In this document: piece by piece, positions 1,256-42,167 of the stretch | Layout of the letters: each line of letters begins with the position of its first letter | Position numbering within the stretch: the first letter of the stretch is position 1 | NCBI GenBank assembly: GCA_963774705.1 | Contig: CAVZFW010000001.1 | Coordinates: 269,743 to 333,742, forward strand | Reading direction: 5' to 3' | DNA length: 64,000 nt | Source of the DNA: an uncultured delta proteobacterium | GTDB taxonomy: Bacteria; Desulfobacterota; Binatia; Binatales; Binataceae | The notes under the pieces: model-generated | Database searches by the model: none | Told to the model about the DNA's origin: nothing | The model's input: only the letters and a program-made list of their open reading frames with translations | Translations under genes and position numbers: made by a program

Positions 1256-1275
1256 AATGCGACGCCGCGACTTGA

Positions 1276-2052: not shown

Positions 2053-2162
2053 TTCAACGCCCTCCACAATTGGGCACAATCGACGGCCATAGTGTATTCG
2101 ATATCGAACATGATGTCATCCAGCGCCCATCGCGCCCGCGTCGCCCGCCGACGCATCGCGGA

Positions 2163-3072: not shown

Positions 3073-3161
3073 CGGAGCTGTACTGCTCGGCGGCTTACCC
3101 GATCGCGCACGCGCTGTGCTATTTTCGGCGCAGCAAAATTCCGTTGTAGGGAGCGCCATCG

Positions 3162-3776: not shown

Positions 3777-3825
3777 CCGCCGTCGGGGTGCGTAAGCACC
3801 TTCAGAGAACGGCATCTGAGCGATC

Positions 3826-4423: not shown

Positions 4424-4465
4424 TGCGGTGAGCATCGGAGAGGCGAAAATTCCCGACCTTGGATT

Positions 4466-7500: not shown

Positions 7501-7538
7501 GAGCATGCGCACCCGGCGAACGATCATTTGAGTCTGGG

Positions 7539-15345: not shown

Positions 15346-16366
15346 TCACAGCTCAAGCATGACCTTGGTCTGGTTCGATGGCTGTGTGAGAGCCGCAAAC
15401 GCGCGCGGCAGTTCGTCGAGGCCAACCGTGTGAGTAATCATTGGTTCGGTCGAAATGCGGCCCGAAGCGAGCACCGCAATCGCTGTTTCCACTTCGCCGG
15501 GCTCCAGCCCCAGGCTGAAGTTGACGTCGAGTTCCTTGCTCATCGCAAGGCCGGGCGGAAAGCCGTCGTCTTCCATCGAAACGCCCAGGATGGTCACGCG
15601 GCCCGCCGCGCGGCGCATGAGAGATCGCTTGCGCCATAGTTCCCGCTTCGCCGATGCACTCGAAGATGACGTCGGGACCGGCGCCGGTAATCCGGGCCAT
15701 CGCGGCGGCCGGGCTGTGCATCCGCGGGTCAACGGCCGCATCCGCGCCAAGCTTCAGGGCGACCTCGCGCCGATCCAACTGGAGTTCCGAAACCACGATT
15801 GCGCGCGCACCGGAGAATCGCGCCCACAACAGCGTCATCAGGCCGATCGCCTCCGGCTCCCATGATTACGCAGGTCTCGCCGGTCTGAAAGCGCGCACGG
15901 CGCAGTCCATGGAGGCCGACGACGAGCGGCTCGACCGTCGCCGCCGCACGAAAACTCATCGTCTTCGGGATCTTGAAGACACTGCCAGGCCGCGTCTTGA
16001 TCAACTCGGCATAACCGCCCGGAACGTCGCCGAATCCGACCATCCGCATTGCGTCGCACCGCACGCTCGATGCCGGCGCGGCAATTGGCGCATTCGCCGC
16101 ACGACAGATACGACATCACGACCACCGGATCGCCGGGATTCGAAACCGGTCACCCCAGCGCCGACTTTATCGACGACGCCCGCGATTTCGTGGCCCATGA
16201 TGGTGCCCGGCAGGGAGCTTCGCCTTGGCCGAAGTGGCGGCGTGCAGATCCGAACCGCAGATGCCACAAGCCTTGACGCCGGACGAAGTTCTCCGATCTG
16301 CACCGGATCAGGTAGTTCGACGACTTCGAGCGGCGCGCCGATCGCCTTGAATACGCATGCCTTCAT
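15346..16366 (-). pseudogene. Zn-dependent alcohol dehydrogenase (MDR family), at least 4 frame changes
   Basis: MKACVFKAIGAPLEVVELPDP...GHEIAGVVDKVGAGVTGF (16001..16366). SCGECANCRAG (15838..16125). GGYAELI...TCVIMGAGG (15729..16064). Cofactor domain and C-terminus in 15353..15838 and 15346..15750. Confidence 0.75.
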
Positions 16367-16473
16367 AATGGTGTTGCGAGATAGCGAATATCGCCGACGA
16401 AGGCGCTACCGCCGAGGGGCGGGCCTCTGAGATATACACGCCTTCATCGTCCGTGCTGCATCGAGGATACGGG

Positions 16474-17277
16474 CTATTTCTTCAGGTGCGGGAAGACCGG
16501 CGGGCGCTTCTCCTTCACCGCCGCGACACCTTCGTCCACGTCGGCGCTGAAGAAGCCGAGCATCTCGAAGGCGAGCGACGCATCGAAATGCGGACCGAAG
16601 GTCTTGACCCAGTTGTTGAGCGCGCGCTTGGTCAAACGCGCCGCCTGCTGCGGACCGCGAGCGATTTTTCGCGCGACCTCGAAGGCCTTGTCCATCAGCT
16701 TGTCCGCCGGCACGCACAGACTCACCAGTCCGATGCGCTCGGCTTCCTTGCCGTCGATGAAATCCGCCGTGATGAGGTAGTACTTCGCCTTCGCCAGGCC
16801 GCACAGCAACGGCCATAGAATGACCGCGTGATCGCCGGCGGCGACGCCGAGACGCAGATGGCCATCGGTGATGCGCATCGACTTCGGACGCGATCGTGAT
16901 GTCCGCCATGAACGCCACCGCGAGGCCCGCGCCGACCGCGACACCGTTGATCGCCGAGATGATGATCTTCTCGCAATTGACGATGTTGTAAACGATGTCG
17001 CCCGCCTCGCGCATCGCTTGCGAGATGTTGGCGTGATTGCCCTTCATCGTCCTCGATCATGTCGAGGTCGCCGCCCGCCGAAAACGCACGGCCCTTGCCG
17101 GTGATGATGACGACGTTGGTCTTCGGGATCGTCGTCGATGTCCCTCCACACCCGGCTCAGCTCCCAATGCAGGCGCGCATTGGTCGCGTTAAGCACGTCG
17201 GGCCGATTGATCGTGATCAGCAGGATGCCGTCGTCGTGGCGCGTGAATTCCAGAAACTGATATTCGTCGTACCTCAT
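16474..17277 (-). pseudogene. Enoyl-CoA hydratase/isomerase (crotonase) family, at least 2 frame changes
   Basis: N-terminal piece 17044..17277 (MRYDEYQFLEFTRHDDGILLITINRPDVLNA). Middle piece 16406..17047 ([27 protein letters not shown]). C-terminal piece 16474..16944 ([24 protein letters not shown]). Confidence 0.75.
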
Positions 17278-17406
17278 CGGGTGTTCTCCAAAAGTGGCGT
17301 CGCAGTCTTAGTAGCGCATCCGGCACCTCGGTGGAAAACCCGCGATCAATTGAAACGCAATGATGGGGTCTGATGGCGCAGCTTGATTATTCCGCTGCGA
17401 TCATTT

Positions 17407-18335
17407 GACCCGCGATCATCCAGCATAGATGTCCATGATTTTGTTCAGCAACGCGATCGCCTCGGCCTTCGGACGCTGAAATGAGTTGCGGCCGATGATC
17501 GATCCGAATCCGCCGCCTGCCTTGATCGCCTTGACCTCGTCGATCAGCGCCGCGTCGGTATCCTTCGGTCCACCCGAGAAAATGACGAATACGCCGGCCG
17601 TCGAAGCAGCTTTGCACGACGTGGCGCACGCGCTCGGTCAGCGGCTCCAGCGGAATCCGCTGGGCCTCATAGACTTTCTTCGCCTCGGCCAATTCCAAAT
17701 GCGATGAAGGGAGCTTGACCTTCACGATATTGGCGCCAAGCTGCGCCGCTATCTGCGCGGCATATGCAACGACATCCAGCGCGGTCTCGCCCTCCTTGCT
17801 GATGCCGGAGCCGCGCGGATATGACCACACCACCACCGCCAGCCCGCATTGCTTCGCCTCCTCCGCAATCCCCCGCAATTCCTCATACATATCTCGCCGC
17901 TCCGCGGATCCCGGGATAGATCGTGAACCCCACAGCGGAACATCCGAGCCGCAGCGCATCGTTAACGCTGCCGGTCACGGCGGAAATCGGATCGCGCTCG
18001 TCGTATAGCAGGTCGTGATTGTTCAGCTTCAGAATTAGCGGCAGCTCGCCGGCAAATTCGGCCGCGGCTGCTTCGAGGAAACCGAGCGGCGCTGCGTAGC
18101 CGCTGCATCCGGCCTCGAGCGCCAACTGGAAATGATAGTACGGATTGTAACCCGCCGGATTTACCGCGAAGCTGCGCGCCGGTCCGTGCTCGAAGCCCTG
18201 ATCAACCGGCAAAATAACTAGTTTGCCCGTGCCGGCTAGTCGCCCTTGATTAAAAAAGCGGGCGAGGTTAGTACGCACGCCAACGTTTTCGGAATCGTAG
18301 TAAGAAAGAATTTCGCGGACTCGCTTGGTCATCAT
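17407..18335 (-). pseudogene. fbaB: Class I fructose-bisphosphate aldolase (FbaB/DhnA type), at least 2 frame changes
   Basis: N-terminal piece matches E. coli FbaB (NQGRLAGTGKLVILPVDQGFEHGP). Middle piece is in ORF 17387..17959. The C-terminus (VIFSGGPKDTDAALIDEVKAIKAGGGFGSIIGRNSFQRP...IYAG*) was recovered by hand translation of a third frame ending at 17407. Confidence 0.75.
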
Positions 18336-18396
18336 GCGAATAGCCCCTCCTGGAGTAGTTTGGTTTTGGATCACCCTGCCGTGGGAGCGATGCCGC

Positions 18397-19389
18397 TTAT
18401 TTATCCTGCATCGCGACCGCCGCCCATGCCGCCCCAATCAGCGCCGCTGCCGGATTGAGCGAGACTCGAACGGCGATTCTTTCAAGCGTCGAGCGCAAGC
18501 GTCCCTTGTCAAGAAAGGCCTCGACAAGGGTGCCTCGCTGCAAGAACGGCAGGATCTTCGGCGCGATGCCTCCGCATAAATAAACCCCTCCGAGCGCGAG
18601 GTACTTCAATGCTAGGTTAGCTGCTTCGGCGCCGTAAATTGCCGTGAAGATTTCGAGCGCATTTACACAACGCGGATCACGGCCGCCGAGCGCGATCTCG
18701 CTGATAACTGCGGACGGATCCTCGGTGCGCATACGCTCGGAGAGCCAGTCCGGTTCGGCGCCCGGATTGCGCGAAACCACAAAGCGATAAATGTTGTGCA
18801 GTCCGGGTCCCGATAAAACGCGCTCGAAGCTTACGTGCCCGAACTCGCGCGCGAGGAATTCGAGCAGGCGGAATTGCTCGTCACCCCAAGGGGCGAAATC
18901 GCTATGGCCGCCCTCGCTAGCAACTGCAAAGTAGCGACTCGGCGTGGCGATCAACGCCGCCTCGCCCAAACCGGTGCCCGCCGCAATCACTGCAATGTTC
19001 GCGCGGCCCGCCCGTGCTTCGCCGCGATGCAAGATCGAAATCTCTGATTCCTTCAGGTAGGGAACGCCGTAAGCAGTCGCTTCAAGGTCGTTCATCAGGT
19101 GCGTGGGAGTTCCGCTCAGGGCGCGCTGAATCGAATCCCGCGCCATGCTCCACGACACGTTGGTGGCGTGGCTGACGCCATCGATCACGGGACCAGGCAC
19201 GCCGAAGCAGGCGGCATCGATTCGGTCCGCGGGGAGCAGAAATGCAGCACACGCTTGCTCGAGGCCTGGAAACGCGGCGGTTTGGTAAACCTGCTCGCGA
19301 ATCGCTTTCAGCTCGCCACCAGCGGCGCGAAACAACCCAAGATGAGTTTTGGTGCCGCCGATATCGCCAGCCAGTATCGTGCTCGCCAT
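18397..19389 (-). CDS. glk: Glucokinase
   Basis: 330-aa intact ORF with N-terminal ILAGDIGGTKTHLGLF ATP-binding motif and overall Glk-family layout. Confidence 0.85.
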   Translation of the reverse strand: MASTILAGDIGGTKTHLGLFRAAGGELKAIREQVYQTAAFPGLEQACAAFLLPADRIDAACFGVPGPVIDGVSHATNVSWSMARDSIQRALSGTPTHLMNDLEATAYGVPYLKESEISILHRGEARAGRANIAVIAAGTGLGEAALIATPSRYFAVASEGGHSDFAPWGDEQFRLLEFLAREFGHVSFERVLSGPGLHNIYRFVVSRNPGAEPDWLSERMRTEDPSAVISEIALGGRDPRCVNALEIFTAIYGAEAANLALKYLALGGVYLCGGIAPKILPFLQRGTLVEAFLDKGRLRSTLERIAVRVSLNPAAALIGAAWAAVAMQDK

Positions 19390-20515
19390 CGGTCCGCCTC
19401 GTGAAGCCAGATCATCTCTATGGTACCGCGCTAGCGAACCGAGGAAAGAGGCTCGGCGGATGCGCCCCGTTAGTCATTGCACTTGAGCGGCAAGGTCTTC
19501 TGACTACGCTTAATCTTGCGGCGGGCTCGAGCGTCACTTTCTGGTCGCTCTCAACGACAAAACTTTGCACCTGTGAGGGTCGGAATTTGGATGAGTTGCC
19601 AGGCCAGCTACTGCTGGTCGTTAAATTTTTAAAATCGCGACTTCCCAACAACGCAGCCTCTTTAGAGTTTTCGGACAAAACTCAATGCACTCAATGTATC
19701 AAAGCCGAGATTGGTCTCGAAGCTGAGCCTTCGATGACGCACGCCGTCTGGCGGTGGCTCCTTCTCTCCGAGTTTCCGAGGATTCAATCTCGCGTGCCAT
19801 CCGCCATGCTCTTCCAGTAAACCCGCTAGTCATATCCAACCGATCGTGCGGTCGTCTCAAGGCATGAAAGCTGCTTGAACAGGGAGCCATGCACTTGAGC
19901 TCGTTTCGCGACCGTTTTGCGCCAAAAGCACCCGATGCAGGAGGCCCCCACTGCGACGAGTTGCGCGCAATTGATCGCAATGAAAGCTCGAACTCACTGC
20001 GCAATTCTCTGTTGGAAAAGACGATTCAACGCGATTTGACGGGCTTTGTCGGCGTTATATAGTCGCAACTTTTGCCATAGGAATGATTTTAATGGTTTTT
20101 TATTCATTCGCGTACGGGCTCATGTTCCGCTTCAACGCGCTTATCAAACGAGCCGCCGGATGAGCGGGGCATCTGGCCCGAGAATCCAGCTGCGGCCATC
20201 AGGTTCTTCCGCGGAGGAGTCACAAATCGCTCGACGCTTCCTGGTGCGCTTTCCCCAGTACTGGTTTTCCTCAAGGCGTCTTTTTTGAGTGCCAATTTAC
20301 TTGCGCTAAAGAGGGAAGGTTAATTCGCCGCGGTCAACGGCGGGATTTCCCTTTTGAGCCGGATAGGGTTGGCAACCCTGCGCTGCACCGCTCGCAGAGG
20401 CGAGAGAATCGAGGCTCGCCAATCCCGCGTGATTTCTCCCGAGCAGAGCGGCCGAGGTCTCCGCATTGGAAATCGCCGGTGCATCGAACAACGTACGTTA
20501 GCCTCGATCCAGACA

Positions 20516-20926
20516 CTAATCCCCACCAATATGAGTCCCCTTCTCCGCTACCGAGCGACGCATGAGCAGAACGAACGCCACCAACAGAACCCCGACTGCA
20601 GCTGAAAATGTACACACGTCAAAGTAAGCCATTGACGACGCCTGTTGAGCTCGCGATTGGCCGAGGACGCCCAATGCCATCTGATTTGACAATACGGCAT
20701 CGCCGTTGTGCTGCACCTGCGGGAACGCATCCAGAAGCACGGCTTGGATCGAGGGTTGGAGACCACCCCCGGCCACCCCTGAAGCGCTCGAGATGCGATG
20801 ATAAAACCAAGGCTTCCAGCCATTCCGCACAAAGCGGACGCCAACGTAAAGATGGCTATCGAGGGCAGAAAATAGTTTCGCCTGCCGAGCCGCAGCGCAA
20901 GCCACCCGGAGAGATCGCGAGGCCAT
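20516..20926 (-). pseudogene. Remnant of an MFS (DHA-type) transporter gene inside an AT-rich decayed interval
   Basis: GVAGGGLQPSIQAVLLDAFPQVQHNGDAVLSNQMALGVLGQ matches the MFS helix 4-5 signature (GxGGGxLxPxxxAxIxDxFP...G). No full-length ORF is present; surrounding sequence 19400-21000 has visibly lower GC. Confidence 0.4.
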
Positions 20927-21094
20927 CAGCCCAGTCCGGCGAGAACCTGATCGAGTTTTCGTCAGGCATTGGCACGAAACTTCCTCAACAGCTGTGAGAG
21001 CGCCTCGGGGATGTTTTTCTTCCTATACGCGACTGCCGTTGCGCTTGGCACCGGAAGATACCGTCATCGCCAATGGAGCGATCCATGCGCTGTG

Positions 21095-21526
21095 TCACTT
21101 CCCGAGTGGGATCGTCAGCACCTTCTCGCTCGTGTCGACCACGAACACCGCAAGGAGCTTGGCCGGCTCCGTCTCGCTGGCATTGGCGCTGACACCGTGG
21201 CGGTCCCCGGGCAGCTCCGAGAAGCTCTCTCCAGCCTTGTAGATCGTCACCGGTCCGTCGTTGACCTGACTTCGGATTGCCCCCTCAAGCACAGTCGCGT
21301 AGATGAACGCGGATTTGGCATGGGTGTGACCAGGCGAGTAGCCGCCTGGGCTGTATTCCACGAGCACGCCCTTGATGCTCTTGCCGGGAACGTTCGGCAG
21401 CTCGTGCTGGTAGACGAGGGTCACCTTGGCGTTCTCCGACTTAGGCGCATTGGCGAGGACGCTCTCACACAACAGGCTCGCGAAAAGTAGCAGACAGACG
21501 AACAGCGGACTGATGATGCGTTTCAT
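21095..21526 (-). CDS. Cupin-domain protein with signal peptide
   Basis: MKRIISPLFVCLLLFASLLCESVLA signal. GYSPGHTHAKSAFIYATVLEG cupin motif. Confidence 0.7.
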   Translation of the reverse strand: MKRIISPLFVCLLLFASLLCESVLANAPKSENAKVTLVYQHELPNVPGKSIKGVLVEYSPGGYSPGHTHAKSAFIYATVLEGAIRSQVNDGPVTIYKAGESFSELPGDRHGVSANASETEPAKLLAVFVVDTSEKVLTIPLGK

Positions 21527-21558
21527 GGAGCCCTCTCGTTCAATTGGCGGATGTGAGA

Positions 21559-22314
21559 TCAGGCTCCTGCCTGCGAGCGGCGGAGCCATTCGTCGAAACC
21601 GATTCGGCCCAGGCACGCTTCGCCCAACGGCACGAGCGAGTGCTCCTCGACCCGGCCGCCGAAGTATCGGGCCTCGGGATCACTTACAACCTGGCGCGGG
21701 TCGCCGACCGCCTTCAGATAGCGGGCAACGACTTCGTTGAAAGGTGCTCGTTCCGGGCCCGCAATCTCGACTATGCCATTGACCGGCTGGCTCACCGCTA
21801 CCTCGGCCACGATGGCGGCGACGTCGTCCGCCGCGATGGGCTGGAACAGGCCGGGCGAAATCCTGACCATGTTGCTAACCGCACTTGAAGTGGCGATGCC
21901 GCTGAGGAATTCCAGGAACTGGGTCGACCGGATGATGGTGTAGGGGATGCCGGAGGTCTCGATCAGTTTCTCCTGGGCTACCTTGGCGCGGAAATAGCCA
22001 TTCTCGGGCGTCCGGTCCGTTCCGACTACGGATAGGGCGATATGGTGCCGCACGCCGGCTGCGGCTTCCGCGGCGTGAAGGTTGCGGCCGGAAGTCTCAA
22101 AGAATTCAAGCACCGGCGTGTCTTCAAATGAGGGGGAATTGGCAAGGTCGATCACCACCTGCGCACCAGCCAAGGCCTCTTTGAGTCCCTCGCCGGTGAT
22201 GGTGTTGACGCCGCCTTTGGGCGAGGCGGCGACGACCTCCTGATCACCTCGCCGCAGAATGGCGACAGTCTTCGAGCCGATCAGGCCGGTGCCGCCGATG
22301 ACAACGATTTTCAT
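21559..22314 (-). CDS. NAD(P)H-binding NmrA/SDR-like oxidoreductase
   Basis: MKIVVIGGTGLIGSK Rossmann motif; 251 aa intact. Confidence 0.8.
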   Translation of the reverse strand: MKIVVIGGTGLIGSKTVAILRRGDQEVVAASPKGGVNTITGEGLKEALAGAQVVIDLANSPSFEDTPVLEFFETSGRNLHAAEAAAGVRHHIALSVVGTDRTPENGYFRAKVAQEKLIETSGIPYTIIRSTQFLEFLSGIATSSAVSNMVRISPGLFQPIAADDVAAIVAEVAVSQPVNGIVEIAGPERAPFNEVVARYLKAVGDPRQVVSDPEARYFGGRVEEHSLVPLGEACLGRIGFDEWLRRSQAGA

Positions 22315-22779
22315 GTTTAGCCTCCTTGTCGAAGCCTAGAGTTCTGCGCCTTTCAGGGCTCGCTCAGCGCGGTCGTGGTACTTTCAGGTAACAGGAAAGG
22401 CGTTCGCACCATTGCCGACACGGAATCTCGACGTTGGCCGGTCCGCACGCCGCCCCGCGAAAGCGAGCAAGTGATCGCGCCTAGCGGGTAAAATCAGACA
22501 GCCCACACCAATTGTCAAATGTTGCGGATCGCCCGCATGATCAAAGGGCTTCCTTAATTGGCCACTAGCAGGGTATTGGTCAAAGGGTTGAATCACGAAG
22601 TTCGCTCAGTCTGATGACGTGACGAAGTGAGTATTGAGGTTCCGGGTGGGTCGTTACCGAGTTGGCCGTGGCAAGTACGACTTGCCAGTGATTCGATTCA
22701 TCCGCTGAGACAGAGCTTTGCGATTCTCAGCAGGTTATAGGCGGTGCCGACCAGTTAGGCGGGATCAACCTGTTCATCG

Positions 22780-23045
22780 GTAAGCGGCCCTACGCCGCGT
22801 TCGGCAACTCGATCGGCGATCAGCAGATGTTGGAGTGGACCCAAGCGGGCGACGGTGCACGATTGATGATGCTGGTTTTGCATGATGACTCAGAACGCGA
22901 GTACGCGTACGGTCCCGCTGCCGGTTTGCCGGATAGCAAGGTCGGTACGTTCTCCCAGGCGCTGTATGACGAGGCCAAGTCCAAAGGCTGGACCATCATC
23001 AGCATAAAGAAGGACTGGAAGCGCATTTTTGCCTTCGAGAAGTGA
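22780..23045 (+). pseudogene. C-terminal fragment of a HAD-superfamily hydrolase (5' part missing)
   Basis: In-frame GKRPYAAFGNSIGDQQMLEW (HAD motif IV GDxxxD). ORF 22827..23045 ends ...KGWTIISIKKDWKRIF. No N-terminal catalytic DxD region; stops upstream. Confidence 0.45.
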
Positions 23046-23335
23046 GATGACGATGCCGAACAGAGGCTCGGCTTATGCCATCGAGAGATTCTCGATGGCA
23101 CGGCGTTTTTCAACACCCTGCTAGTTGGCTGATTAATTGCGCTTGAAGCTTGACCCACGCTCCGCACAGCTATTTCACGACGGCACTTTGAGCGACGCTC
23201 TCGGTATAGCGACCGCTAATCGAGCAGCACGACGGCCGACGTGACGATCGTGCGCTTTAGAAGTATTCAAGCGCGACAAAGGAAGAGCCGGATTGATGCC
23301 GGCCCTTCCTTAACTGCCAATCAACGATTGCCGTT

Positions 23336-24199
23336 TCATGCAAGGACGAACCGGAACGAGTCACCTTTCTTTACGATCTTCCCAGCCGATGGTGTCGCGA
23401 AATGCGTCCCCAGTACGATCGTTCCTGTATCCGCGTAGCGCTCGCAGAAGGCACGGCGCGTCTTCTTCGCATGCGCCAAATCGACGTCGAAGTTGTCGTC
23501 CCATTCCGGATAACGGCATTGAATCGGATGATGCATCATATCGCCAGTAATTACCGCGTTCTGACCTTTCGATGAAATCCGCACTGAGAAATGACCGGGC
23601 GTATGTCCAGGCGTTGCTTCAAGCCACACTTCATCCGAAAGTTTGCCGCCGTCATCTACCAGGTCCGCCAACCCATGATCGAAAATCGGCCGCACTGAGT
23701 CTTCCACCGGCGCTTTGAAGAAGTCGTCCTGCTGACGCGAGAAGAAGTCCCATTCCGTGCCGCCGACCAGATAACGCGAATTCGGAAAAGTGGGCACCCA
23801 CTTGCCGTTTTGCAGCATGGTGTTCCAACCCACGTGATCGACGTGCAGGTGGGTGCAGATCACGTTGGTAATCAACTCGCGGGCGCAGCCCGCCGTCTTC
23901 AAGTCTTCGAGGAAGGGTAGATGCATCTGGTTCCACTCGGGAAAGGCCGGACGTACCTTGTCGTTGCCGATGCAAGTGTCGACGATGATCCGCTGATCCT
24001 TCGACTCGATCAGCAGCGAATGGACACTGAGCTTGATTTTCCCGGTTTCGTCGGAAAACGCGGGATAGAGCCAATCGGCCTCTTTGCGAATATTTTCGGC
24101 GGTCGCATTCGGTAGCAGCATCGTGCCGTCCCATCGCGCCTCCGATTCAACAACCCGCGAGATCTTGACGTCTCCAATCTTCCACTGATTCATGCGCAT
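23336..24199 (-). CDS. MBL-fold metallo-hydrolase (lactonase-like)
   Basis: CTHLHVDHVGW (HxHxDH) and a downstream TPGHTPGH motif; 287 aa intact. Confidence 0.8.
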   Translation of the reverse strand: MRMNQWKIGDVKISRVVESEARWDGTMLLPNATAENIRKEADWLYPAFSDETGKIKLSVHSLLIESKDQRIIVDTCIGNDKVRPAFPEWNQMHLPFLEDLKTAGCARELITNVICTHLHVDHVGWNTMLQNGKWVPTFPNSRYLVGGTEWDFFSRQQDDFFKAPVEDSVRPIFDHGLADLVDDGGKLSDEVWLEATPGHTPGHFSVRISSKGQNAVITGDMMHHPIQCRYPEWDDNFDVDLAHAKKTRRAFCERYADTGTIVLGTHFATPSAGKIVKKGDSFRFVLA

Positions 24200-24353
24200 G
24201 CACTCCTCTAATCTGTGAATTTAATCCCTTACGATTCCCGCCAGTTCTGTCGACCAACATCAAGAGAGAAGGAAAAGCTATCACGGTGACACCAATGCCC
24301 CAAAGCGGTGCCGGCTAATCGCCCACACTCCAATCAGGGAGCCATCCGCTGGC

Positions 24354-24752
24354 ATGAAGCTGGCGGCCGTCTCGAACTGGATATTGCTCCACTTGGGCGC
24401 AATACATCCCGGCAACCCCGTTTCCGTATATCTCCAGGGCGCGCCAAACGGACATCGCCGAGTGTCGTCCGGACGAGCCGTTTGGCGCCGCATCATGGTA
24501 GGTACTCGTTCGCCTCGACCCAAACAGATCGACAGGGTCGCGCTAAACAGAGTCAGGAACATCGCGCGCAAAGTTCACAGCGCTATCGACCGTCGCACCA
24601 CTCGCCACTCGGGGTACGCCATCAGTCAGATCAAGCGAAAACGGGTGGAAGATATCTTCGGTTGGATGAAGACCATCGGCGGATTGCGCAAGACCCGCTT
24701 GACCGATCGTGGGAAGGTGGCATTGCGATCCGAGCTTGGGTTGGCGTTTTAA
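24354..24752 (+). mobile_element. Truncated IS5/IS4-family DDE transposase C-terminal fragment
   Basis: ...QIKRKRVEDIFGWMKTIGGLRKTRLTDRGKV... matches the conserved C-terminal block of IS5-family transposases. No N-terminal DDE region or terminal inverted repeats were identified. Confidence 0.5.
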
Positions 24753-25097
24753 GACCAGGCGGCGACGCCATTTGTTTCGGTATCAGCAACACAACGAAAA
24801 GGCCGGATTTGCTGCTGTGTTCAAGACCGCCAGATACTAGACAATGTCTCGGGCAGCCGAGCGCGATTAGCCGGCCTGCACGATGCAGTTTCGCAACGAT
24901 CGCGCGCTATTTTCCCACACTTAATCCAAAACTCCCGACCGACAGAAACCGCATGATAAGTCCCGCTGGACGAATCGATATCGATCTTTGCTGAGACAGG
25001 AGCAACACAAAGTACGTCCCAGCCAACATTGGCGAAGTTATGAGAAGGTGAGTTCGGATATATTCTTTCGTCGCCACCTTCTACTTGTCCGGTTCGA

Positions 25098-25631
25098 TTG
25101 GCTCCGGCATGCGGCGTGCTTATGGACCTGCAGATATTCGATGAGCTTTCCATTGAAGCGCGCAGGAGGAATTACGTGAGGCTCAAGAGGTTGCGGGAGA
25201 ACTTACCGCAGCAATCGCACTACGACGACCAGCTGGCTCGCACTTGTTTTAATATCGACAGACAGATTACCGTCAAGGAGTTACGGGCACTGCATCGATT
25301 ACTGATCGATAAAGCGATGGCAATCGAGATGCTCGCCGCGGAGCGGGTGTTCAGCGCCCGGCTGAACGAGAAATTAGCCGGAAAAGCGCGATTGCTGCGC
25401 AAAGTCGCTCGAGAACTTGAACCCTTGCGACGGGCCGCGGCGAAGGCACGACGCACCCTGCAGTGCTGCGGGAGCTTGAGCTGTCCCGGCTTCCCAACGA
25501 TAGCCAACGGCCAAAAGTCAAGATTGACCCCTACTACCACTGACCTCTTTCCGCGACAATTTAGCGAGCGGTCAGGCCGAAACCCGCATATTGAACGCGC
25601 GCGGCCTTTCAACGAGAGGAATGACTGCTGA
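25098..25631 (+). CDS. Hypothetical protein in the low-GC island (possibly itself a remnant)
   Basis: 177-aa ORF in AT-richer sequence with no recognisable motifs. Overlaps the next fragment by 40 nt. Confidence 0.25.
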   Translation: MAPACGVLMDLQIFDELSIEARRRNYVRLKRLRENLPQQSHYDDQLARTCFNIDRQITVKELRALHRLLIDKAMAIEMLAAERVFSARLNEKLAGKARLLRKVARELEPLRRAAAKARRTLQCCGSLSCPGFPTIANGQKSRLTPTTTDLFPRQFSERSGRNPHIERARPFNERNDC

Positions 25632-26020
25632 TTCCAAGCTGGCGAGGCGCCAGTTACTGCCTCGAATTCTAAAACCACTAAGGCCAAACCTGATCGCACT
25701 AAAAATTAAGCGCTGGTATAGCCACGACCAAAATCACTCGTGGAACCCTTCAGGCTCGCCTTCAGCGTACGTGAAGTATCGCGTTAGGCGGGCGGTTGAG
25801 TTCCTCAGTGACTTCGACGATCGAGCGGTGTTAGAGGCGGCGCGGCGTCGTCGAGTTGACGGCGTGATCTGCGGCCATGTCCATCGCGCCGAATAACGGC
25901 TGATTGGGCCCATCTGGTACATCAACGACGGTGATTGGGTACACAGCCGTACGGCACTGATCGAAGACTATCACGGCGCGTTGAGTCTACTACGATGGAA
26001 CGGACACCGCGAAACGTGCG
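25591..26020 (+). pseudogene. Metallophosphoesterase C-terminal fragment (LpxH/calcineurin-like), frameshifted
   Basis: VDGVICGHVHRAE then stop. After a frame change, the sequence reads RLIGPIWYINDGDWV..., the typical GHxH...GDW end of metallophosphoesterases. Confidence 0.45.
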
Positions 26021-27250
26021 TCAGTCACTGACAGCGATGACCAAACGAAAGCGTCATGAACTACCACAAGGCCCTCCGGCGATGGACGTGGTTTTTCTTT
26101 GATGCCGGCCACGACCAACGAGCCTCGGCTACTGCGATGAACGCAGTAGCCGAATAGCAAATGCGGCGCTGGTACATTCGCGTCGTAAACGTGCCCGACG
26201 CGCTCGACCCAGTCGACTGCATCCGTGTCCGCAAGTGGCCAAGCCTTTCGGTGCAAGGATCGATGACCAGTCCTTACCAAAGAGCGGTTTTTGGCGCGAA
26301 CATCAAATTGCGCCCGGAACGATGAGCGGCGGTGCTGGCTGTTTGTGTCCAAAGTCGAAAATGCTCATCAGATCTCCGTACGAACCGCTCTCGTAGCCGT
26401 CGCGCTTGTACCAGTTGTTGGAGCCCAGCGATGGATTCGGATTTCAATCAGTGCGGCAGGCGGCGTCACCGGATTCCCGCTGCCATCTCCGTAGTACGCG
26501 ATATCTCCTGTTCCCAGATAGATGAAGCTGGCACCGGTGCCACCGATAATTCCCTGGTGGAAGCTGTCGCTCAATGCGTAGTGGTCAGCGATGAACTTGA
26601 ATACCGGTGCGTCTCCCCGGCATGTTGTAGAAGCCCATCGCAACTCCGCCCTGATGCGTACTCTGATTGGTAAACGGAATGGGTGTGGGTTTCCCTTCGC
26701 TTCCCATCTCGGCGGTTGTAGCCACCCATGGGAATAGATCGCTCCTTCCTTCATCGAATTGCTGCCACATCTGAAAGAACCGATGGACCGGGTCGCCGGC
26801 GAACGAGTTCTGGTACGCGGTGAACCTGCTGATCTGAAAGGGTCCACCAGGCAGATTCGCGGAAAATCGCGGATCGGGTTCGTTTGGCTTGCGGCCAAGC
26901 GCATAGGTCGTATTAGGTTGTGGCAGCGTTGCGAAAACACTCGTCCGCGTCGGCGCGATCGAATAGTGATTGGTATCGGTCGCCTGCCACTGTTCAGATC
27001 TGCCGGCGTTCGGCCCGGGCGCGCCGTCCGCATCCACGATCACCTGAGAGAGCAGATTAACCACGTGCTGCCCGCTCAACGGTTTATAGGTGGCGAACAG
27101 ATGATCGAAGCTCCGATTTTCTCCGACAATTACGACCAGGTGACAAATCGGCGTTTTCGGGCTGCCGTTTGCGATCGCTTCGAAGGGCGCCATCCAAAAG
27201 CCGCCAGTCAATGAGATAGCGACCACCATTTTCGTGATTGCTCGCTTCAA
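25990..27250 (-). pseudogene. Phosphoesterase-family protein (phospholipase C/acid phosphatase AcpA, PF04185) with signal peptide, at least 2 frame changes
   Basis: 26585..27250 has MKRAITKMVVAISL signal and the family-defining VVIVGENRSFDHLFATY. 26368..27033 carries FKFIADHYALSDSFHQGIIGGTGASFIYLGTGD in another frame. Further C-terminal pieces lie in 25990..26352. Confidence 0.65.
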
Positions 27251-27491
27251 TCGATTTTCCCTTCACTCGCCCTCGTCGACGACCAGTTCAATGGGTCCCA
27301 TCAGCACCTGAAAGACATGGGGGCCACGAAAGTAGCGGTTGAATTCGCCGCCAACATACTTCCAATTGTCGCTCGGATCGAACCAGGCTTCGGTCGGGGG
27401 TGTACAAAGCAGTTTTGTGAGAGATCGGCGGCGCGGCCGCGCGGTGTCCTCACCGAGCGCGTATCTAATCACAATTAATTTGCGGGATATT

Positions 27492-27569
27492 TTGGTGGAC
27501 GCACCAGGACTTGAACCTGGGACCCCTTGCATGTGAGGCAAGTGCTCTAACCGGGCTGAGCTATGCGTC
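27492..27569 (-). tRNA. tRNA-Val (anticodon CAC), CCA encoded
   Basis: Hand-folded from the reverse complement: acceptor GGACGCA/TGCGTCC, D-arm GCTC-AGCCCGGTTA-GAGC, anticodon stem CTTGC/GCAAG with loop CTCACAT, T-arm CCAGG-TTCAAGT-CCTGG, discriminator A, CCA; 78 nt. Confidence 0.9.
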
Positions 27570-27816
27570 CACTCGGGGATCGGATTATTGCGCCGCAGCC
27601 GTGTCGCTCGCAAGAGTGGGACTGGTGATTTATCCGGCTGCGCCGCGCGCTTGTCTGCAGACAATTGACGCTGATCTGGCAGACTGATACCTCTGACGCT
27701 GATCCGGCGGACGGACACGTCGAGTGGACGCATCGCCGGGGCCCCACGGGTAATTCAAGCGATCGCCGGCTTGGTCTGCGGACGAATGAGCTTGCGGTGG
27801 AGGGGCGGGACGAAGG

Positions 27817-28709
27817 CCACATGAGCACCTCTAGCATCAACTCCCAGGTCAGCGCCGCGTCGATTTTCCATCGCGATGTCCTGCAGTACCGCGAATACAA
27901 GTTGCTGCTGCAGGCGAATCGCTTCAGTCGTCCGCAGGAGTTCCACAAGTTCTGGAAGATCACGCGGCGCGTGGCGAAGGAGCTGGGAATCGCGATTCGC
28001 AAGCGCGGCAAGCCGATGGAGACGCATCTGCGCGAGGTAATCTTCTTCGACACGCCGAAGTTTCGGCTCTACAACCACGGCTTCATCTTGCGGCGACGGA
28101 CGTTTTACGCGAACGGCGTGCCGCGGCCCGAGTATGAACTGACGCTCAAGTTCCGCGATCCGGATCTGGCGACGGCAACGGAAGTCGACGTGCGGCCGCT
28201 GGTGCCCTGCATCAACGTGGTCAAGTTCGAAGGAGGAGGTCCTGCTGCCTTACGACCAGATCGAGGGTGTGCGCATGATCTATTCGCATAGCTGCGAGCT
28301 CGATACCCCCAACACCATTTTGACGCAAAGCTTCCAGACCATCTGCGAGGTCTTTCCGGCACTGCTGCGGACCGGGGCGAAGGCGAAGACCGCGCTCTCG
28401 GTAGTCAACGGAATCGCGATCGAAGAGGTGCTGGTGAACTTCGGTGAAATCGATTTTGGCGACAAAATGACGGCCAAGGCTACGCTCGCAATCTGGCGCA
28501 ATCGAATGACCCAGGAGCATTTTATCGGCGAGTATGGATTCCAGCTCAGGTTTCGTTCGCCGGGGGGTTTTCGCGGCGAGCCCAAGGAGCTGTCCGAGGC
28601 CTTTTACCTGGGCCTGCAGCGTGAGGCTTCCGAGTGGATTGAGATGGGGACGACCAAGACCTCGATGATCTACCGGATGGGGAAGACGCCGGTGTTGAGA
28701 AACGAATGA
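27817..28709 (+). pseudogene. Unrecognised protein of about 297 aa, possibly CYTH/triphosphate-tunnel-like; one frame change at about 28230-28240
   Basis: ORF 27665..28291 (frame 2, from MSTSS) and ORF 28269..28709 (frame 3) join seamlessly as ...CINVVKFE|EEVLLPYDQIEGVRMIYSH... across the G/A-rich run gaaggaggagg. Alternating charged motifs YREYKLLL, EYELTLKF and GEIDFGD are weakly CYTH-like. Confidence 0.5.
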
Positions 28710-28727
28710 AGGGTAAGCATCAACGCG

Positions 28728-29384
28728 ATGAATGAGGGTAGCCGGAGCGACGCCAACCTGCGTGAAGCATCGCGGGTGCCCAAACGCCCGAGTCTCGGCG
28801 AATTGTTCAAGGTTTTCCTGACGGCCGGCGGAATCAGTTTCGGCGGCGGCGTGGTCGCGTACCTGAGGCAATACCTGGTGAACGCGAACGGGTGGCTGGA
28901 CGACGACGATTTTCTCGATGCGCTCGAAGTCAGCGAAACGCTCCCCGGTCTGAACTCGGTCAACATGAGCGTGATCGTGGGCGATCGGATGCGCGGTGCG
29001 CTCGGCGCGGCGGTCGCGGTGGTTGGGCTGATGCTGCCCGGGATGGTGGTGATGATGACGCTCGGCGTGCTGTGGGATCAGCAGCGTCACAACGTTTACG
29101 TGAACCATTTTCTGGTCGGCGTGGCAGCATCGGCGGTAGGCCTGCTGCTGACGGTGACGCTGCAACTGGGGCATAAGCAATTCGTGCGTCCGCTCGATCT
29201 CATCTTGATGGCGGTGACGTTCGGGGCGGTCAGCGTGTTCAAGGTTGCACTCGGCTGGGTGTTGCTGGTGGTCGGTCCGATCGCCGTATGGCTTTACCGG
29301 CCGCGCGGCGCGGTTGAAACGGCAGAGCGCTTCGTCCACTTGCGCGAACGCTTCCGTTCGCATCGATCGCATTGGCGGCATTGA
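28728..29384 (+). CDS. chrA: Chromate transporter ChrA, short-chain CHR half 1
   Basis: FKVFLTAGGISFGGGVVAYLRQYLV and LPGLNSVNMSVIVG are CHR-family signatures. Confidence 0.85.
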   Translation: MNEGSRSDANLREASRVPKRPSLGELFKVFLTAGGISFGGGVVAYLRQYLVNANGWLDDDDFLDALEVSETLPGLNSVNMSVIVGDRMRGALGAAVAVVGLMLPGMVVMMTLGVLWDQQRHNVYVNHFLVGVAASAVGLLLTVTLQLGHKQFVRPLDLILMAVTFGAVSVFKVALGWVLLVVGPIAVWLYRPRGAVETAERFVHLRERFRSHRSHWRH

Positions 29385-29941
29385 GCGGCATGAGCAAGAT
29401 CTTCAGTTTGGCGTGGATTTTTGCGCTACTCGGAATCCTGGCGGTCGGCGGCGGCACCGCGGTGCTGCCGGAGATGCAACGAATGACGGTCGATCAGTAC
29501 CATTGGGTGACGGCCAAGCAGTTTCGCGACATCTATAGCCTCGGCCAGGTCGCGCCCGGGCCGAATATGCTGATGGTCATGGTTATCGGCTACCGGGTGG
29601 CGGGTTATCTTGGCGCGACGGTGGTCGCCTTCGCATTTTTCATCCCGGATTGCATTCTGACGTTGTTCGCGAACCGGATGTGGCTGCGATTTTCCGATTC
29701 GCCATGGCGGCTCTCGATCCAACGTGGGTTGGCGCCGATTGCGATTGGGCTGATGCTGTCCGGCACGTATTCGATCGGACGGCTGTCGATCCATAACTGG
29801 TTAAGCCTGGGGATCGCGGCGGCGACGCTGAGCGTGCTGCTGTGGCGACGGGTGAATCCGCTGCTGCTGATCTCGGTTGCGGGCATTTTGTATGTGCTTT
29901 TTGGACCGAATCCGGTCAGTGCAATTGGGTTAACTAACTGA
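29372..29941 (+). CDS. chrA: Chromate transporter ChrA, short-chain CHR half 2
   Basis: LGILAVGGGTAVLPEMQ...LGQVAPGPNMLMVMVIGY. Overlaps the first half by 13 nt, suggesting translational coupling. Confidence 0.85.
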   Translation: MAALSGMSKIFSLAWIFALLGILAVGGGTAVLPEMQRMTVDQYHWVTAKQFRDIYSLGQVAPGPNMLMVMVIGYRVAGYLGATVVAFAFFIPDCILTLFANRMWLRFSDSPWRLSIQRGLAPIAIGLMLSGTYSIGRLSIHNWLSLGIAAATLSVLLWRRVNPLLLISVAGILYVLFGPNPVSAIGLTN

Positions 29942-30277
29942 AAACATTGGATAAAATTGGGTTCGTTTTGTAGAATTCCGTCAGTGACGTCTGGCCCCTT
30001 TTAATGAGTTGCCCGCGCCGGGGGAACGACGCGGGCCGGAGGCTGGGGCGCCCGCTTAAAAGGTCGGCTTCGGACCAGGCAAACAAGCACCCCTCGAGGT
30101 TTAGGAGGACAACCCTCTTGTAGCACTATGCGCCTTTTGGTTGTGGTTGGATAGTGGGCCTTTTCTGACACTGAAAAATATACCTGGCTGACGGCGATGC
30201 ACTCGCTGACGTCCTCCGGGCGCCAGGGCTCAATATCGTGCATTTACGCTTACTGGAGCGGCGTGAGACGCAACGAC

Positions 30278-30284
30278 AAGGAGG
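30278..30284 (+). promoter_or_regulatory. Shine-Dalgarno (AAGGAGG) for the PPOX gene
   Basis: aaggagg lies 7 nt upstream of ATG 30292. Confidence 0.6.
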
Positions 30285-30291
30285 AGTGCGC

Positions 30292-30723
30292 ATGAAGATT
30301 CCCCAATCGGTACGCGAACTGATCGACAGGGCGCCACTCGCTCATCTGACCACCCTCAATGCGAAAGGCGGCCCGCAGGTGACGGTCGTCTGGGTCGGAA
30401 TCGAGGACGAGGAGTTCGTGATTAGCCACCTGGCGGTGCATCAGAAGGTCAAAAACATCCGTCGCGACGCCAGAGTTGCGCTGTCCATGCTCAGTGACAA
30501 GACCAACGCGCAGGGCCTGCGCGAATACGTGGTGATTTACGGTGACGCGCGGGTGACCGAAGGCGGCGCGGTGGACCTTTTGCACCGCCTGGCGCCAAAG
30601 TATCTGGGTCCGAAGGCCGATTTTCCGCCTTCTTCGATGCGGAACATCGCAGGTTACGTGACGCGAATTACGCCGGCGCGCTTCGCTGGGATCGGACCAT
30701 GGGCCGCGCAAGCCGCCGAGTGA
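30292..30723 (+). CDS. Pyridoxamine 5'-phosphate oxidase family protein (F420-dependent PPOX class, TIGR03618-like)
   Basis: MKIPQSVRELIDRAPLAHLTTLNAKGGPQVTVVW... typical PPOX-class split-barrel N-terminus. Start trimmed to the SD-supported ATG. Confidence 0.75.
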   Translation: MKIPQSVRELIDRAPLAHLTTLNAKGGPQVTVVWVGIEDEEFVISHLAVHQKVKNIRRDARVALSMLSDKTNAQGLREYVVIYGDARVTEGGAVDLLHRLAPKYLGPKADFPPSSMRNIAGYVTRITPARFAGIGPWAAQAAE

Positions 30724-37003: not shown

Positions 37004-38012
37004 CTAGCTTTGCGGCGCGCCGTAGCGCTTGGCCAATTCAAGGTTGACCTGCAGCACGTTGACCATCTTCTCGCCGACCAGCCCGCCCAGCGGCGCGAAC
37101 GCGTCGGTCTGCAGCATCTGATCGATCTCCGTGCGCACCTCGGCGGGATTGCGCTTCGTATCGGTCGCCCATTTCGAGGCGACGCGATCGAGTTGGTATT
37201 CGGCGTTATCCAGCGTGATATGCGGATCCAAGCCGGAGCCCGAAGTCGTCACCATGTCGCCCGGCACATTGGCGAGGTCGGCGTCCGCATGGTCCTGGCG
37301 CCACATGTCGAAGAAGATCGATTGGATATCCGAGCCGCTCGCGACGGGCTCGATCGCGGTTTGGCTTTTCCCACCGGGCAACTGAGTCGGTTACGGCCGA
37401 GGGAAACTTGCCGGGATTCTCGCTTCGAGAAATTCTCGAAGAACATCACTGCCAGATCCGACGCCTGCGGCTGTGGGGTAGCAGGATTTTGCTTGATCCA
37501 ATCCGCCACCTCGGCCTTATGCGCCTTTGCCCAGTCGGTAATGTACTGAGCATGCGACGGGTCGGCGCTCACCCACGATTGCGCGAGTTCATTATGGTTG
37601 TCCGCCCATTGTGCGACGAGGTGCGGAGCTGCCCTGGTATTGATCCTGCTGAAACCAGGCCTCGACGTCGGGCGCGACGAGTTGTCCTTTTTTCGGGCCG
37701 CTCGCGTATTTGACGATCGGTCCCAGCATTCGCGCGACGCGATCGCGCAATAGGTAGTTCGAGGCGGCTAGCGTGGACGATGCGGAGGCCGATCCATCGT
37801 AGGAGGCCGCCGACGGACGCGGCCAGAAATACTCGTCCTTGGTGAACGGCTGTGCGATCAACAGCGACCCCACCGGCTTACCGTCGGGTCCGTTAACCAT
37901 GCTGCCGTTGGCGGTAAACGGAAAGAGCGTTTGCCCGATCGCCCACACGGCCAGCGGATAGATCAGGCAACAGATAACTACCGTCGATCCGAGGAGCCAT
38001 AAACTTTTGAGT
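37004..38012 (-). pseudogene. kdpC: K+-transporting ATPase subunit C, at least 3 frame changes
   Basis: The ATG at 38012 gives MNSITQK, then the TM helix LWLLGSTVVICCLIYPLAVWAIGQTLFPFTANGS only after a shift. Pieces 37592..37948, 37249..37572 and 37004..37381 (VTTSGSGLDPHITLDNAEYQ) each carry KdpC-conserved blocks. Confidence 0.8.
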
Positions 38013-38051
38013 GATGCTGTTCATTATTTTATCCTCAGCGCCACGCTACCG

Positions 38052-40214
38052 TCAGGCGACCATGTGCATGGCGGCCAGTCCGACATCGATGAGCTTTATT
38101 CCGATGAAGGGAAGAATCACGCCGCCGACGCCCCACACCAGCAGGTTCTTGCGCAGGAGGGCATCGGCGCCGAGCGGCTGATACTTGACGCCCTTCAGAG
38201 CGACCGGAATCAGGGCCGGAATGATGAGGGCGTTGAAGATGACCGCGGACAGTATTGCGGACGTTGGCGAATGGAGATTCATAATGTCCATCGCCTTCAG
38301 CCAGGGCAGCGTACCGGCGAAGAGTGCTGGCACAATCGCGAAATACTTGGCCACGTCGTTGGCCACCGAAAAGGTGGTTAGTGCGCCTCGCGTCATCAGG
38401 AGTTGCTTGCCGACTTCGACCACTTCAATCAGCTTGGTCGGATCGGAATCCAGGTCGACCATGTTGCCGGCTTCCTTGGCCGCCTGAGTGCCGGAATTCA
38501 TGGCGACGCCGACGTCGGCCTGAGCTAGCGCGGGTGCGTCGTTAGTGCCGTCGCCCATCATCGCGACCAGCTTGCCGTCGGCCTGCTCCTTGCGGATGTA
38601 AGCGAGCTTGGATTCGGGCGTGGCCTGCGCAACGAAGTCATCGACGCCGGCCTGCTTGGCGATCGTCGCGGCGGTAAGTGGATTGTCGCCGGTGATCATC
38701 ACGGTGCGCAGTCCCATCTTGCGAAGCCGCTCGAAGCGTTCGCTCATTCCCGGTCTTGAGAATGTCTTCCAACGCGAGAACACCGGCGATCTTGGAATTC
38801 TCGGCGACTACCAGAGGGGTTGCGCCTTTGGAGGCGATCGCATCGACAGCTTGCTGCAACGCGGCGGGTATAGTGCCGTCTCTTTGTTTGACGAAAGCGA
38901 CTACCGCATCAGCAGCGCCTTTCCGAATGCACCTGCCGTCAGGAAAATCGACGCCGCTCATTCGTGACTGCGCACTGAACGGGATGAACGTCGCATCGGC
39001 GGGGGCGCTCAAATCTTTGGAGATGACGCCGATTGCCTGCGCGGCGGTGACGATGCTTTTGCCTTCCGGGGTTTCGTCCGCGGTGGACGCAACGCCGCCA
39101 GAAGAGCCAACCTAAGTTGTGAGTAGCCAGTCACGGCTACGAAGTCGGTGGCCCGGCGATTGCCCACGGTAATGGTGCCCGTCTTATCGAGCAGGACGGT
39201 GTCGATATCCCCGGCGGTTTCAACCGACTTGCCGCTCTTGGCGATGATGTTCGCCTGTAATGCGCGATCCATGCCGGCAATACCGATCGCAGCTAGCAGC
39301 GCACCGATCGTAGTGGGAATCAGGCACACCAGCAGCGCAACGAGGGTCGGCACATCGGTGCCGAGGCTCTTTAGCGGATCTGAAAGGCTCAAGGTAACCC
39401 ATCATGTATTGTTCGGCATTCCAGGCCATCGGCCAGATCGGAATTACGACGATCAGAAAGGCCAAGGTGAGTCCTGAAAGCACCAGCGTAAGCGCGATTT
39501 CATTTGGTGTCTTTTGACGCACGGCACCCTCGACCAGCGCGATCATGCGATCGAGGAAGGCCTGACCCGGCAGGGCCGTGATTTTCACGACGATTCGATC
39601 TGAGATGACCCTGGTTCCGCCGGTAACGCCGGAACGATCGCCGCCGGCCTCGCGGATAACCGGCGCAGACTCACCCGTGATCGCAGATTCATCGACCGAC
39701 GCGATGCCCTCGACCACCTCGCCGTCGCTGGGAATTACTTGCCCCGCGGCTACCACGACGCGATCACCCGGTTTGAGATCGGTCGATAGCACTTCTTCGA
39801 CCGCGTCCCCGGCTCTTGAGATCGATAGGCGGGTGTCTCGCTGCGCGTCTTGCGGAGCGACTCGCGCCTGCGCCTTACCGCGAGCCTCCGCCAGTGCCGT
39901 CGCGAAATTCGCGAACAGCACCGTCAGGAAGAGCCAGAAATCCAGCGCAATGAAGTAGGTAATCGGAACTTGACTCGACTGAGGTACTTACGAGCGCCTG
40001 TATGATGAAGAGCAAGCGTCAGCACGGCGCCGATCTCGACCACGAACATGACCGGATTGCTCCACTGAATGTCCGGGCGAAGCATCACCAAAGATTGCTT
40101 CAAGGCATCGCGCACGAGTTCGGGTTCAAACAGCTTCCGGCTTTTGATTCGCCTTGGCGGGCGCGGATGTTCGGGTGCTTCAAGCGGCCGTAGCGGTGTT
40201 GCAACTGCTCCCAT
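38052..40214 (-). pseudogene. kdpB: K+-transporting ATPase subunit B (P-type ATPase), at least 4 frame changes
   Basis: N-terminus 39924..40214 (NPVMFVVEIGAVLTL). 39220..39921 (actuator region). 39009..39392 contains the phosphorylation motif DKTGTIT. 38638..39012, and 38052..38783 ([10 protein letters not shown]...[20 protein letters not shown]). Confidence 0.85.
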
Positions 40215-40263
40215 TTTTAGATCCTCCGAAAAGTGCGCTGCGCTAGGACAATGACTCTCGAAA

Positions 40264-42116: not shown

Positions 42117-42167
42117 TGGCTGGGTCCTCTTCTGTTAATCAGCTCTTGGCGTCAGCGGCCGTAATGA

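Follow-up and report, generated by a model that had tools for sequence, protein, structure and literature searches.

Gene remnants on the 3' side of a tRNA-Val(CAC) gene and a predicted short-chain CHR transporter operon on its 5' side in a Binataceae genome

The tRNA-Val(CAC) gene and its decayed 3' flank

The window analysed here (the whole stretch of 64,000 nucleotides from contig CAVZFW010000001.1 of an uncultured member of the Binataceae) carries a sole tRNA gene according to ARAGORN and Rfam, an intact tRNA-Val(CAC) at 27493-27570 on the minus strand (Rfam tRNA model, 68.8 bits), and this gene is the border between a conserved block of genes and a variable flank. A sequence-only reading of this DNA had already recognised the tRNA gene, one base off at 27492-27569, and had taken both of its sides for the remnant of an old, decaying integrated element. 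The gene is 100% identical to the orthologues of seven relatives (within loci L001-L009). Its 3' end lies at 27493 and points to lower coordinates, where a zone of dead genes (22.4-27.5 kb) begins 240 nt further on. On the 5' side follow an unannotated, frameshifted gene with a predicted CYTH/triphosphate-tunnel fold (27821-28709, plus strand; hereafter the CYTH-like gene) and two intact genes of a chromate transporter, chrA-N (28728-29384, plus strand) and chrA-C (29390-29941, plus strand). The spacer between the tRNA gene and the CYTH-like gene contains a 28-nt tandem duplication (82% identical) at 27666-27721 and, at 27721-27736, an inverted copy of the tRNA 5' end and leader with 15 of 16 positions matching; both may be due to chance.

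The sequence-only reading had described the dead zone as remnants with one intact gene for a lactonase-like hydrolase of the metallo-beta-lactamase (MBL) fold, and this description held for the remnants and for the MBL-fold gene. The hypothetical open reading frame (ORF) that it had also counted, at 25098-25631, is probably spurious; it had no homologues in Pfam, NCBIfam or PHROGs and overlaps one of the remnants. The ORF at 22384-22596, which opens the interval flagged in that reading, gave no detectable homology. At 22761-23033 on the plus strand, tblastn revealed the C-terminal 27% of a HAD-family hydrolase: a 336-aa Ensifer protein aligned through residues 245-335 only, at 68% identity, and its N-terminal 244 residues had no tblastn match within 21-24 kb. 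The IS5-family transposase at about 24447-24746 (plus strand; NCBIfam and tblastn) is reduced to its C-terminal ~100 residues, which span positions 221-277 of the 285 in the NCBIfam profile transpos_IS5_4 and match annotated IS5 transposases of plasmids at 41-61% identity over query residues 75-174 (tblastn). A complete DDE transposase is absent there, and a matching inverted repeat was sought and not found. The LpxH-like metallophosphoesterase at 25531-25998 (plus strand; tblastn and phmmer) is a C-terminal half, to which the 335-aa protein P0241 aligned through residues 166-313 in a single frame that reads through a stop codon at 25894-25896 (tblastn); the lost N-terminal 165 residues are the catalytic half. 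An exhaustive phmmer search found 228 relatives of it, Pfam gave a weak Metallophos match, and tblastn of the fragment against plasmids gave no match.

The last remnant before the tRNA gene, at 26303-27250 on the minus strand (Pfam and tblastn), is a pseudogene of an AcpA/phospholipase C (PLC)-type phosphoesterase with a signal-peptide-like N-terminus. Positions 2-101 and 104-152 of the Pfam Phosphoesterase profile were matched in different frames, and tblastn followed the gene through frames -3, -1 and -3, with two 1-bp frameshifts at about 26618 (one G gained in a G run) and then at about 26445 (one A lost in an A run). At about 26380, an internal deletion of about 0.8 kb has joined the last 26 residues straight to about residue 297. 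Three other Binataceae genomes likewise have a split or truncated AcpA/PLC homologue, and the position differs from one to the next (L156, 10001-11786; L158, 5326-6966; L157, 10001-10801). The HAD, IS5, LpxH-like and AcpA/PLC sequences are real remnants of genes, because indel errors cannot make truncations, an internal deletion or an in-frame stop, and the IS5 stub too is beyond what sequencing error could yield. The PHROGs search with ten unexplained ORFs returned nothing, and the DNA-level search of plasmids with 22.3-27.5 kb and 14.9-21.1 kb returned background similarity only (65-76%).

The MBL-fold gene (23336-24199, minus strand; Pfam Lactamase_B, 6e-20) is the only intact gene within the dead zone. 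Its protein scored far under the cut-offs of the NCBIfam models for the AidB and YtnP lactonases, and its likeness to lactonases lies at the superfamily level only. A metagenome scan with this protein found 595 relatives of up to 78% identity, none of which shared its gene context. The GC content of the gene (0.554) is the lowest among the intact genes of the window. The low GC noted earlier for the DNA before the tRNA gene was borne out as well, 22384-27492 standing at 0.558 against a mean of 0.603 (sd 0.016) over all 5.1-kb windows; this is the lowest-GC stretch of the window, the next-lowest non-overlapping 5.1-kb window having 0.578. In a tetranucleotide profile, which the sequence-only reading had proposed as a check, the distance is elevated between about 18 and 27 kb and drops back to baseline where the tRNA-Val gene lies. 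The codon-position GC signal is weak across most of 22384-27492.

Conserved and variable sides of the tRNA gene in relatives

Relatives of the locus were gathered by a genome scan with ChrA-N, and three more loci (L151-L153) were found through the CYTH-like gene. The closest ChrA-N relatives belong to metagenome-assembled genomes of Candidatus Binataceae, at 65-85% identity. The tRNA-Val(CAC) gene was present about 1.2 kb upstream of ChrA-N in all eleven relatives that have the tRNA on the contig (L001, L002, L003, L005, L006, L007, L009, L012 and L151-L153), and all of them share the order tRNA-Val, CYTH-like gene, chrA-N, chrA-C on the tRNA 5' side. Collinearity of the window with relatives extends to 35.4 kb on this side and includes the CYTH-like gene, ChrA-N, ChrA-C, a periplasmic binding protein, a MaoC dehydratase, an amidohydrolase and an 83-aa gene. 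Because this block is collinear with relatives next to tRNA-Val, gene order identifies the CYTH-like gene and the chrA pair as ancestral neighbours of the tRNA gene.

On the 3' side, no gene of the window left of tRNA-Val is shared with any of the eleven relatives, and the comparison of gene order that the sequence-only reading had called for found no relative with the same left-flank order, intact or otherwise. The left flanks of the relatives have at least six different configurations: PhoU and a desaturase in L001 and L007 (in L007 past a 6.4-kb insert), a sigma-54 regulator in L012, a 1303-aa Ig-like protein in L151, and nth, pyrF, dprA and topA in L152 and L153. Neither the latter four genes nor PhoU was found further left in the window, so no insertion could be defined from them. 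Tyrosine integrases use the 3' side of tRNA genes, and L002, L003 and L005 each have a tyrosine integrase right at the 3' end of tRNA-Val. In L003 this 3' end is repeated perfectly over 45 bp, with the att core TGGTGGACGCACCAGGACTTGAACCTGGGACCCCTTGCATGTGAG, and the repeat flanks an 8.2-kb element with an integrase and a Prim-Pol/DUF3631 gene (451-8749); in L007 a 27/28 repeat encloses two acyl-CoA dehydrogenase genes without an integrase (5971-8780); the island of L002 (1-7884) carries a decaying integrase together with IS1595 and IS3 genes. The islands of the relatives at tRNA-Val are also GC-poor. By these integrases and repeats, tRNA-Val(CAC) is a real integration hotspot in the Binataceae, and it can be recorded as such with a defined 45-bp att core.

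The dead zone adjoins on its left an intact two-gene cassette on the minus strand, made up of a cupin gene (21095-21616; Pfam Cupin_2) and an SDR/NmrA gene (21559-22314; Pfam NmrA and NAD_binding_10), together 21095-22314. At the protein level, the SDR shares 84-89% identity with the listed homologues, which include those of Methylobacterium, Burkholderia and Pararobbsia, and at least 8000 homologues fall below E 1e-40. The DNA of the cassette is 77-81% identical to plasmids of Rhodovastum and Paraburkholderia, and 364 plasmid records match it, covering exactly these two genes. By these matches the cassette is a widely transferred one that was recently acquired horizontally, and it is better evidence of horizontal transfer than low GC. 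The interval to the left of it (19390-21094) is poor in ORFs, has a GC content of 0.556 and shows the region's strongest tetranucleotide deviation; a six-frame Pfam scan revealed in it the decayed remnant of an MFS transporter (19.4-21.0 kb, minus strand).

The account that we favour, with moderate confidence, is that the tRNA 3' flank is a lineage-specific, decayed accessory zone at a tRNA hotspot and that the right side is ancestral core. The tRNA-Val gene would then edge a conserved core made up of the CYTH-like gene, chrA-N, chrA-C and the genes for the periplasmic binding protein, MaoC dehydratase and amidohydrolase. The variable zone would reach from at least 21.1 to 27.5 kb, probably starting at about 19.4 kb, and would be a patchwork of the intact cupin-SDR cassette, the intact MBL-fold gene and about 4 kb of dead remnants, the latter inactivated through 5' truncations, an internal deletion, an in-frame stop and frameshifts. 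Most likely, the zone would have arisen through insertion at the tRNA hotspot, once or several times; activity of insertion sequences (IS) and deletions would then have taken out both the integrase and the att site at the far end, and what was left would have decayed neutrally. Like known tRNA-associated islands with tyrosine integrases, the flank lies on the tRNA 3' side, is absent from this site in relatives, may be atypical in composition, and includes both the remnant of an IS and a cassette acquired horizontally; in relatives, this tRNA holds bona fide integrase elements with att repeats. It differs from them in that integrase, att direct repeat and mobility genes are all lacking from the window, and the flank is at most an unbounded, eroded island remnant. 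For bacterial chromosomes, variable and decaying accessory DNA beside a tRNA gene is textbook knowledge, and the feature described here is an ordinary one.

Several results weigh against this account. A direct repeat of the tRNA 3' end, which the sequence-only reading had expected within reach of the tRNA gene, did not rise above the level of shuffled sequence at any place in the window: across the 64 kb, the 45-nt core was matched without gaps at no more than 24 of 45 positions, against a shuffled mean maximum of 25.6, and blastn-short and a repeat search of the whole window were also negative. The integrases of three relatives gave nothing below E=2 in the window by tblastn, six-frame Pfam scans for a recombinase in the gaps 19390-21094, 22315-22760, 24750-25530 and 27257-27492 were negative, and PHROGs revealed no integrase among the ten unexplained ORFs. 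That reading of the flank as an old integrated element at a tRNA gene stays plausible by its position on the 3' side, by the hotspot in relatives, by the unshared genes, and by the IS5 remnant and the cupin-SDR cassette; the att repeat and the integrase that would go with it are missing. Low GC was dropped as proof of foreign origin, the MBL and PLC homologues being low in GC in other hosts too. The MBL homologues in other genomes fell below their host locus in 14 of 15 cases, the PLC homologues did so in two of three and equalled it in the third, and these homologues stood 1-6 GC points under the host loci; ORF-free patches of the window have a GC content of 0.51-0.56, as low as the tRNA 3' flank. 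Low GC therefore points only weakly to foreign origin and is not diagnostic, since the homologues are low as well and the non-coding patches equally so. The PLC family is common in Binataceae, and the gene may therefore be native. The closest relatives are only about 80% identical in protein, for which reason the time and mode of acquisition cannot be reconstructed. Decay is also not specific to the tRNA flank, because the window has other frameshifted operons, of normal GC, at 15.3-18.4 and 37.0-42.1 kb; the earlier picture of a gene graveyard tied to the tRNA flank did not stand in this respect.

In-place decay of native genes is a less likely explanation. According to it, the flank was never a mobile island but is ordinary chromosomal DNA, the lineage is losing genes widely, and the tRNA gene is merely a rearrangement breakpoint. 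It would fit the three further decaying units within the 64 kb (a dehydrogenase-hydratase-aldolase unit, the MFS gene and kdpABC), the frequency of PLC homologues in Binataceae and their split state in L156, L157 and L158, the lack of an integrase and an att repeat in the window, and a GC content equal to that of non-coding DNA and of the same gene families in other genomes. However, the site lies exactly 3' of a tRNA that serves as an att site in relatives, the IS5 stub and the transferred cupin-SDR cassette lie in or beside the zone, none of the flank genes stands beside the tRNA in any of the eleven relatives, and the deviation in tetranucleotides goes no further than the tRNA.

Gene decay elsewhere in the window and the nature of the frameshifts

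The genes of a zinc-type alcohol dehydrogenase (ADH), an enoyl-CoA hydratase (ECH) and a class I (DeoC/LacD-type) fructose-bisphosphate aldolase at 15346-18437 (minus strand) are each split over two to three frames at a normal GC of 0.61, and the glucokinase gene adjoining them (18397-19389) is intact. The kdpABC operon at 37007-42134 (minus strand, profile search) is heavily frameshifted: the KdpA profile was matched at positions 3-101, 101-252 and 247-525 in three frames, KdpB is broken into at least four segments and KdpC into two, which makes at least nine frame segments in all. The block at 35.4-43.1 kb is missing between the orthologous neighbours in L152. Further on, a 1578-aa ORF (44052-48788, minus strand) is high in GC (0.644) and deviates strongly in tetranucleotides (z up to 2.7).

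Altogether about 15 frameshifts fall within about 10 kb (eight genes in four units), and none was detected in about 39 kb of long uninterrupted ORFs. As in pseudogene-rich regions under relaxed selection, the genes with multiple frameshifts are clustered by operon among intact genes, and the older remnants have lost their codon-position GC signal; here, however, the load is known from 64 kb only, and the genes with nothing but frameshifts may be an artefact. Such an artefact, in which the frameshifts are consensus indel errors, perhaps in low-coverage, strain-variable segments, and not real pseudogenes, is improbable. The contig (452,618 nt) does come from a metagenome-assembled genome, possibly from long reads; all frameshifts examined are single-base, three of them in short runs (GGG to GGGG, AAAA to AAA and GG to GGG); a related long-contig genome (L156) also has many split genes; and the CYTH-like gene, with its frameshift, resembles its orthologues to the same degree (77-80%) as its intact neighbours do. 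Against this stand the clustering, which a uniform error rate would produce with a probability of about (0.2)^15, with an ORF of 4.7 kb among the unbroken ones, and the truncations, the 0.8-kb internal deletion and the in-frame stop, which indel errors cannot yield. Two frameshifts lie outside homopolymers, and the NCBI SMAG assembly L158 (platform not checked) also has a split PLC gene. The frameshifted genes of this contig need validation at the level of reads before metabolism is inferred from the genome.

The chrA pair and the CYTH-like gene

The sequence-only reading had taken the two chrA genes for one split gene and for possible surviving cargo of the island, and neither view survived comparison with relatives. 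Pfam Chromate_transp was matched at positions 2-163 of 166 in ChrA-N (E 6e-37) and at positions 2-164 of 166 in ChrA-C (E 4e-39), each gene encoding one complete domain. ChrA-C is 80% identical to the L152 orthologue, starting at residue 1, and the relatives likewise carry two separate chrA genes, of 208-215 aa and 185 aa. The domain content indicates that the pair is a complete two-gene short-chain CHR (SCHR) transporter and not a split gene. The short-chain CHR architecture consists of two genes, for example ywrB/ywrA of B. subtilis (PMC8940164). The predicted transporter resembles such pairs (ywrB/ywrA being chr3N/chr3C) in having adjacent genes on the same strand, of about 185-218 aa, with one Chromate_transp domain each (PMC8940164), and differs from them in that a CYTH-fold gene precedes the pair instead of the Lrp-type regulator ChrS. 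The pair is not cargo, given its synteny in relatives and given that it lies on the tRNA 5' side, which is the wrong side for integrase-mediated cargo. A single old island over both sides of the tRNA, with the unannotated gene and a broken chrA as its surviving cargo, is suggested only by adjacency and by the frameshift in the unannotated gene and is very improbable, being refuted by synteny: the gene and the chrA pair are collinear beside tRNA-Val in 11 of 11 relatives, down to 65% identity, form a three-gene module in 66 of 70 loci of several phyla, lie on the tRNA 5' side with GC, GC3 and a tetranucleotide profile typical of the host, and include two chrA genes that are each complete and single-domain.

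The gene between the tRNA and chrA-N had been reported as unrecognised and frameshifted, which was confirmed, and as part of the island, which its conserved synteny contradicts. A DNA alignment with four relatives placed one 1-bp insertion (G) at about 28229; the gene is intact in relatives, at about 295 aa, and its frameshift is one very recent event or a sequencing error. The family numbers 374 homologues of about 295 aa, every one of them a hypothetical protein by annotation; neither Pfam (PF01928 included) nor NCBIfam gave a match at E<=1, and a profile search of the PDB gave none either. An AlphaFold 2 (AF2) model of the protein (pLDDT 88.7, pTM 0.86) was compared with the PDB by Foldseek, and the top 34 matches all belonged to the CYTH/triphosphate tunnel metalloenzyme (TTM) superfamily (best E 5e-8, probability 0.99-1.0), with AtTTM3, HpAC1, ThTPase, YgiF and CyaB among them. 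The model thus predicts an eight-stranded beta-barrel tunnel fold. The protein would share with AtTTM3, ThTPase, YgiF and CyaB this tunnel fold and conserved basic and acidic residues on the strands, whereas it is longer (295 aa against about 175-210 aa), shows no match to them at the sequence level, and has the N-terminal motif consensus Y-R-E-Y-K in place of ExExK.

In 66 of the 70 genome loci (L001-L070), the gene immediately upstream of ChrA-N, in the same orientation, is the CYTH-like gene; these loci include ones from Binataceae, Verrucomicrobiota, Xanthobacter, Ancylobacter, Methylocella, Chelatococcus and Bryobacteraceae, and in relatives the CYTH-like gene overlaps or abuts ChrA-N. 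This arrangement suggests an operon that opens with the CYTH-like gene and continues with the chrA pair, and the three genes should be annotated as a conserved operon, neither as cargo nor as a broken gene. The literature searched contained no link between CYTH proteins and chromate transporters. We tentatively propose, with somewhat less than even confidence, that an unannotated CYTH-fold family is the conserved first gene of a three-gene short-chain CHR module and, as a separate matter, that the genome may bear an unusually high load of recent pseudogenes. If true, the module would mean an undescribed coupling of a tunnel-type oxyanion- or polyphosphate-binding protein with CHR transport. 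Only two leads of this locus appear worth following, the pseudogene density of the contig and the association of the CYTH-fold gene with the short-chain CHR pair, the latter being a modest lead, open to testing, on a family of uncharacterised proteins. One more distant homologue of the CYTH-like protein occurs without chrA. Within the conserved block, a PNPOx-like gene (30238-30723, plus strand) lies between chrA-C and the binding-protein gene, a place that is empty in L001 and is held by AnmK in L151-L153.

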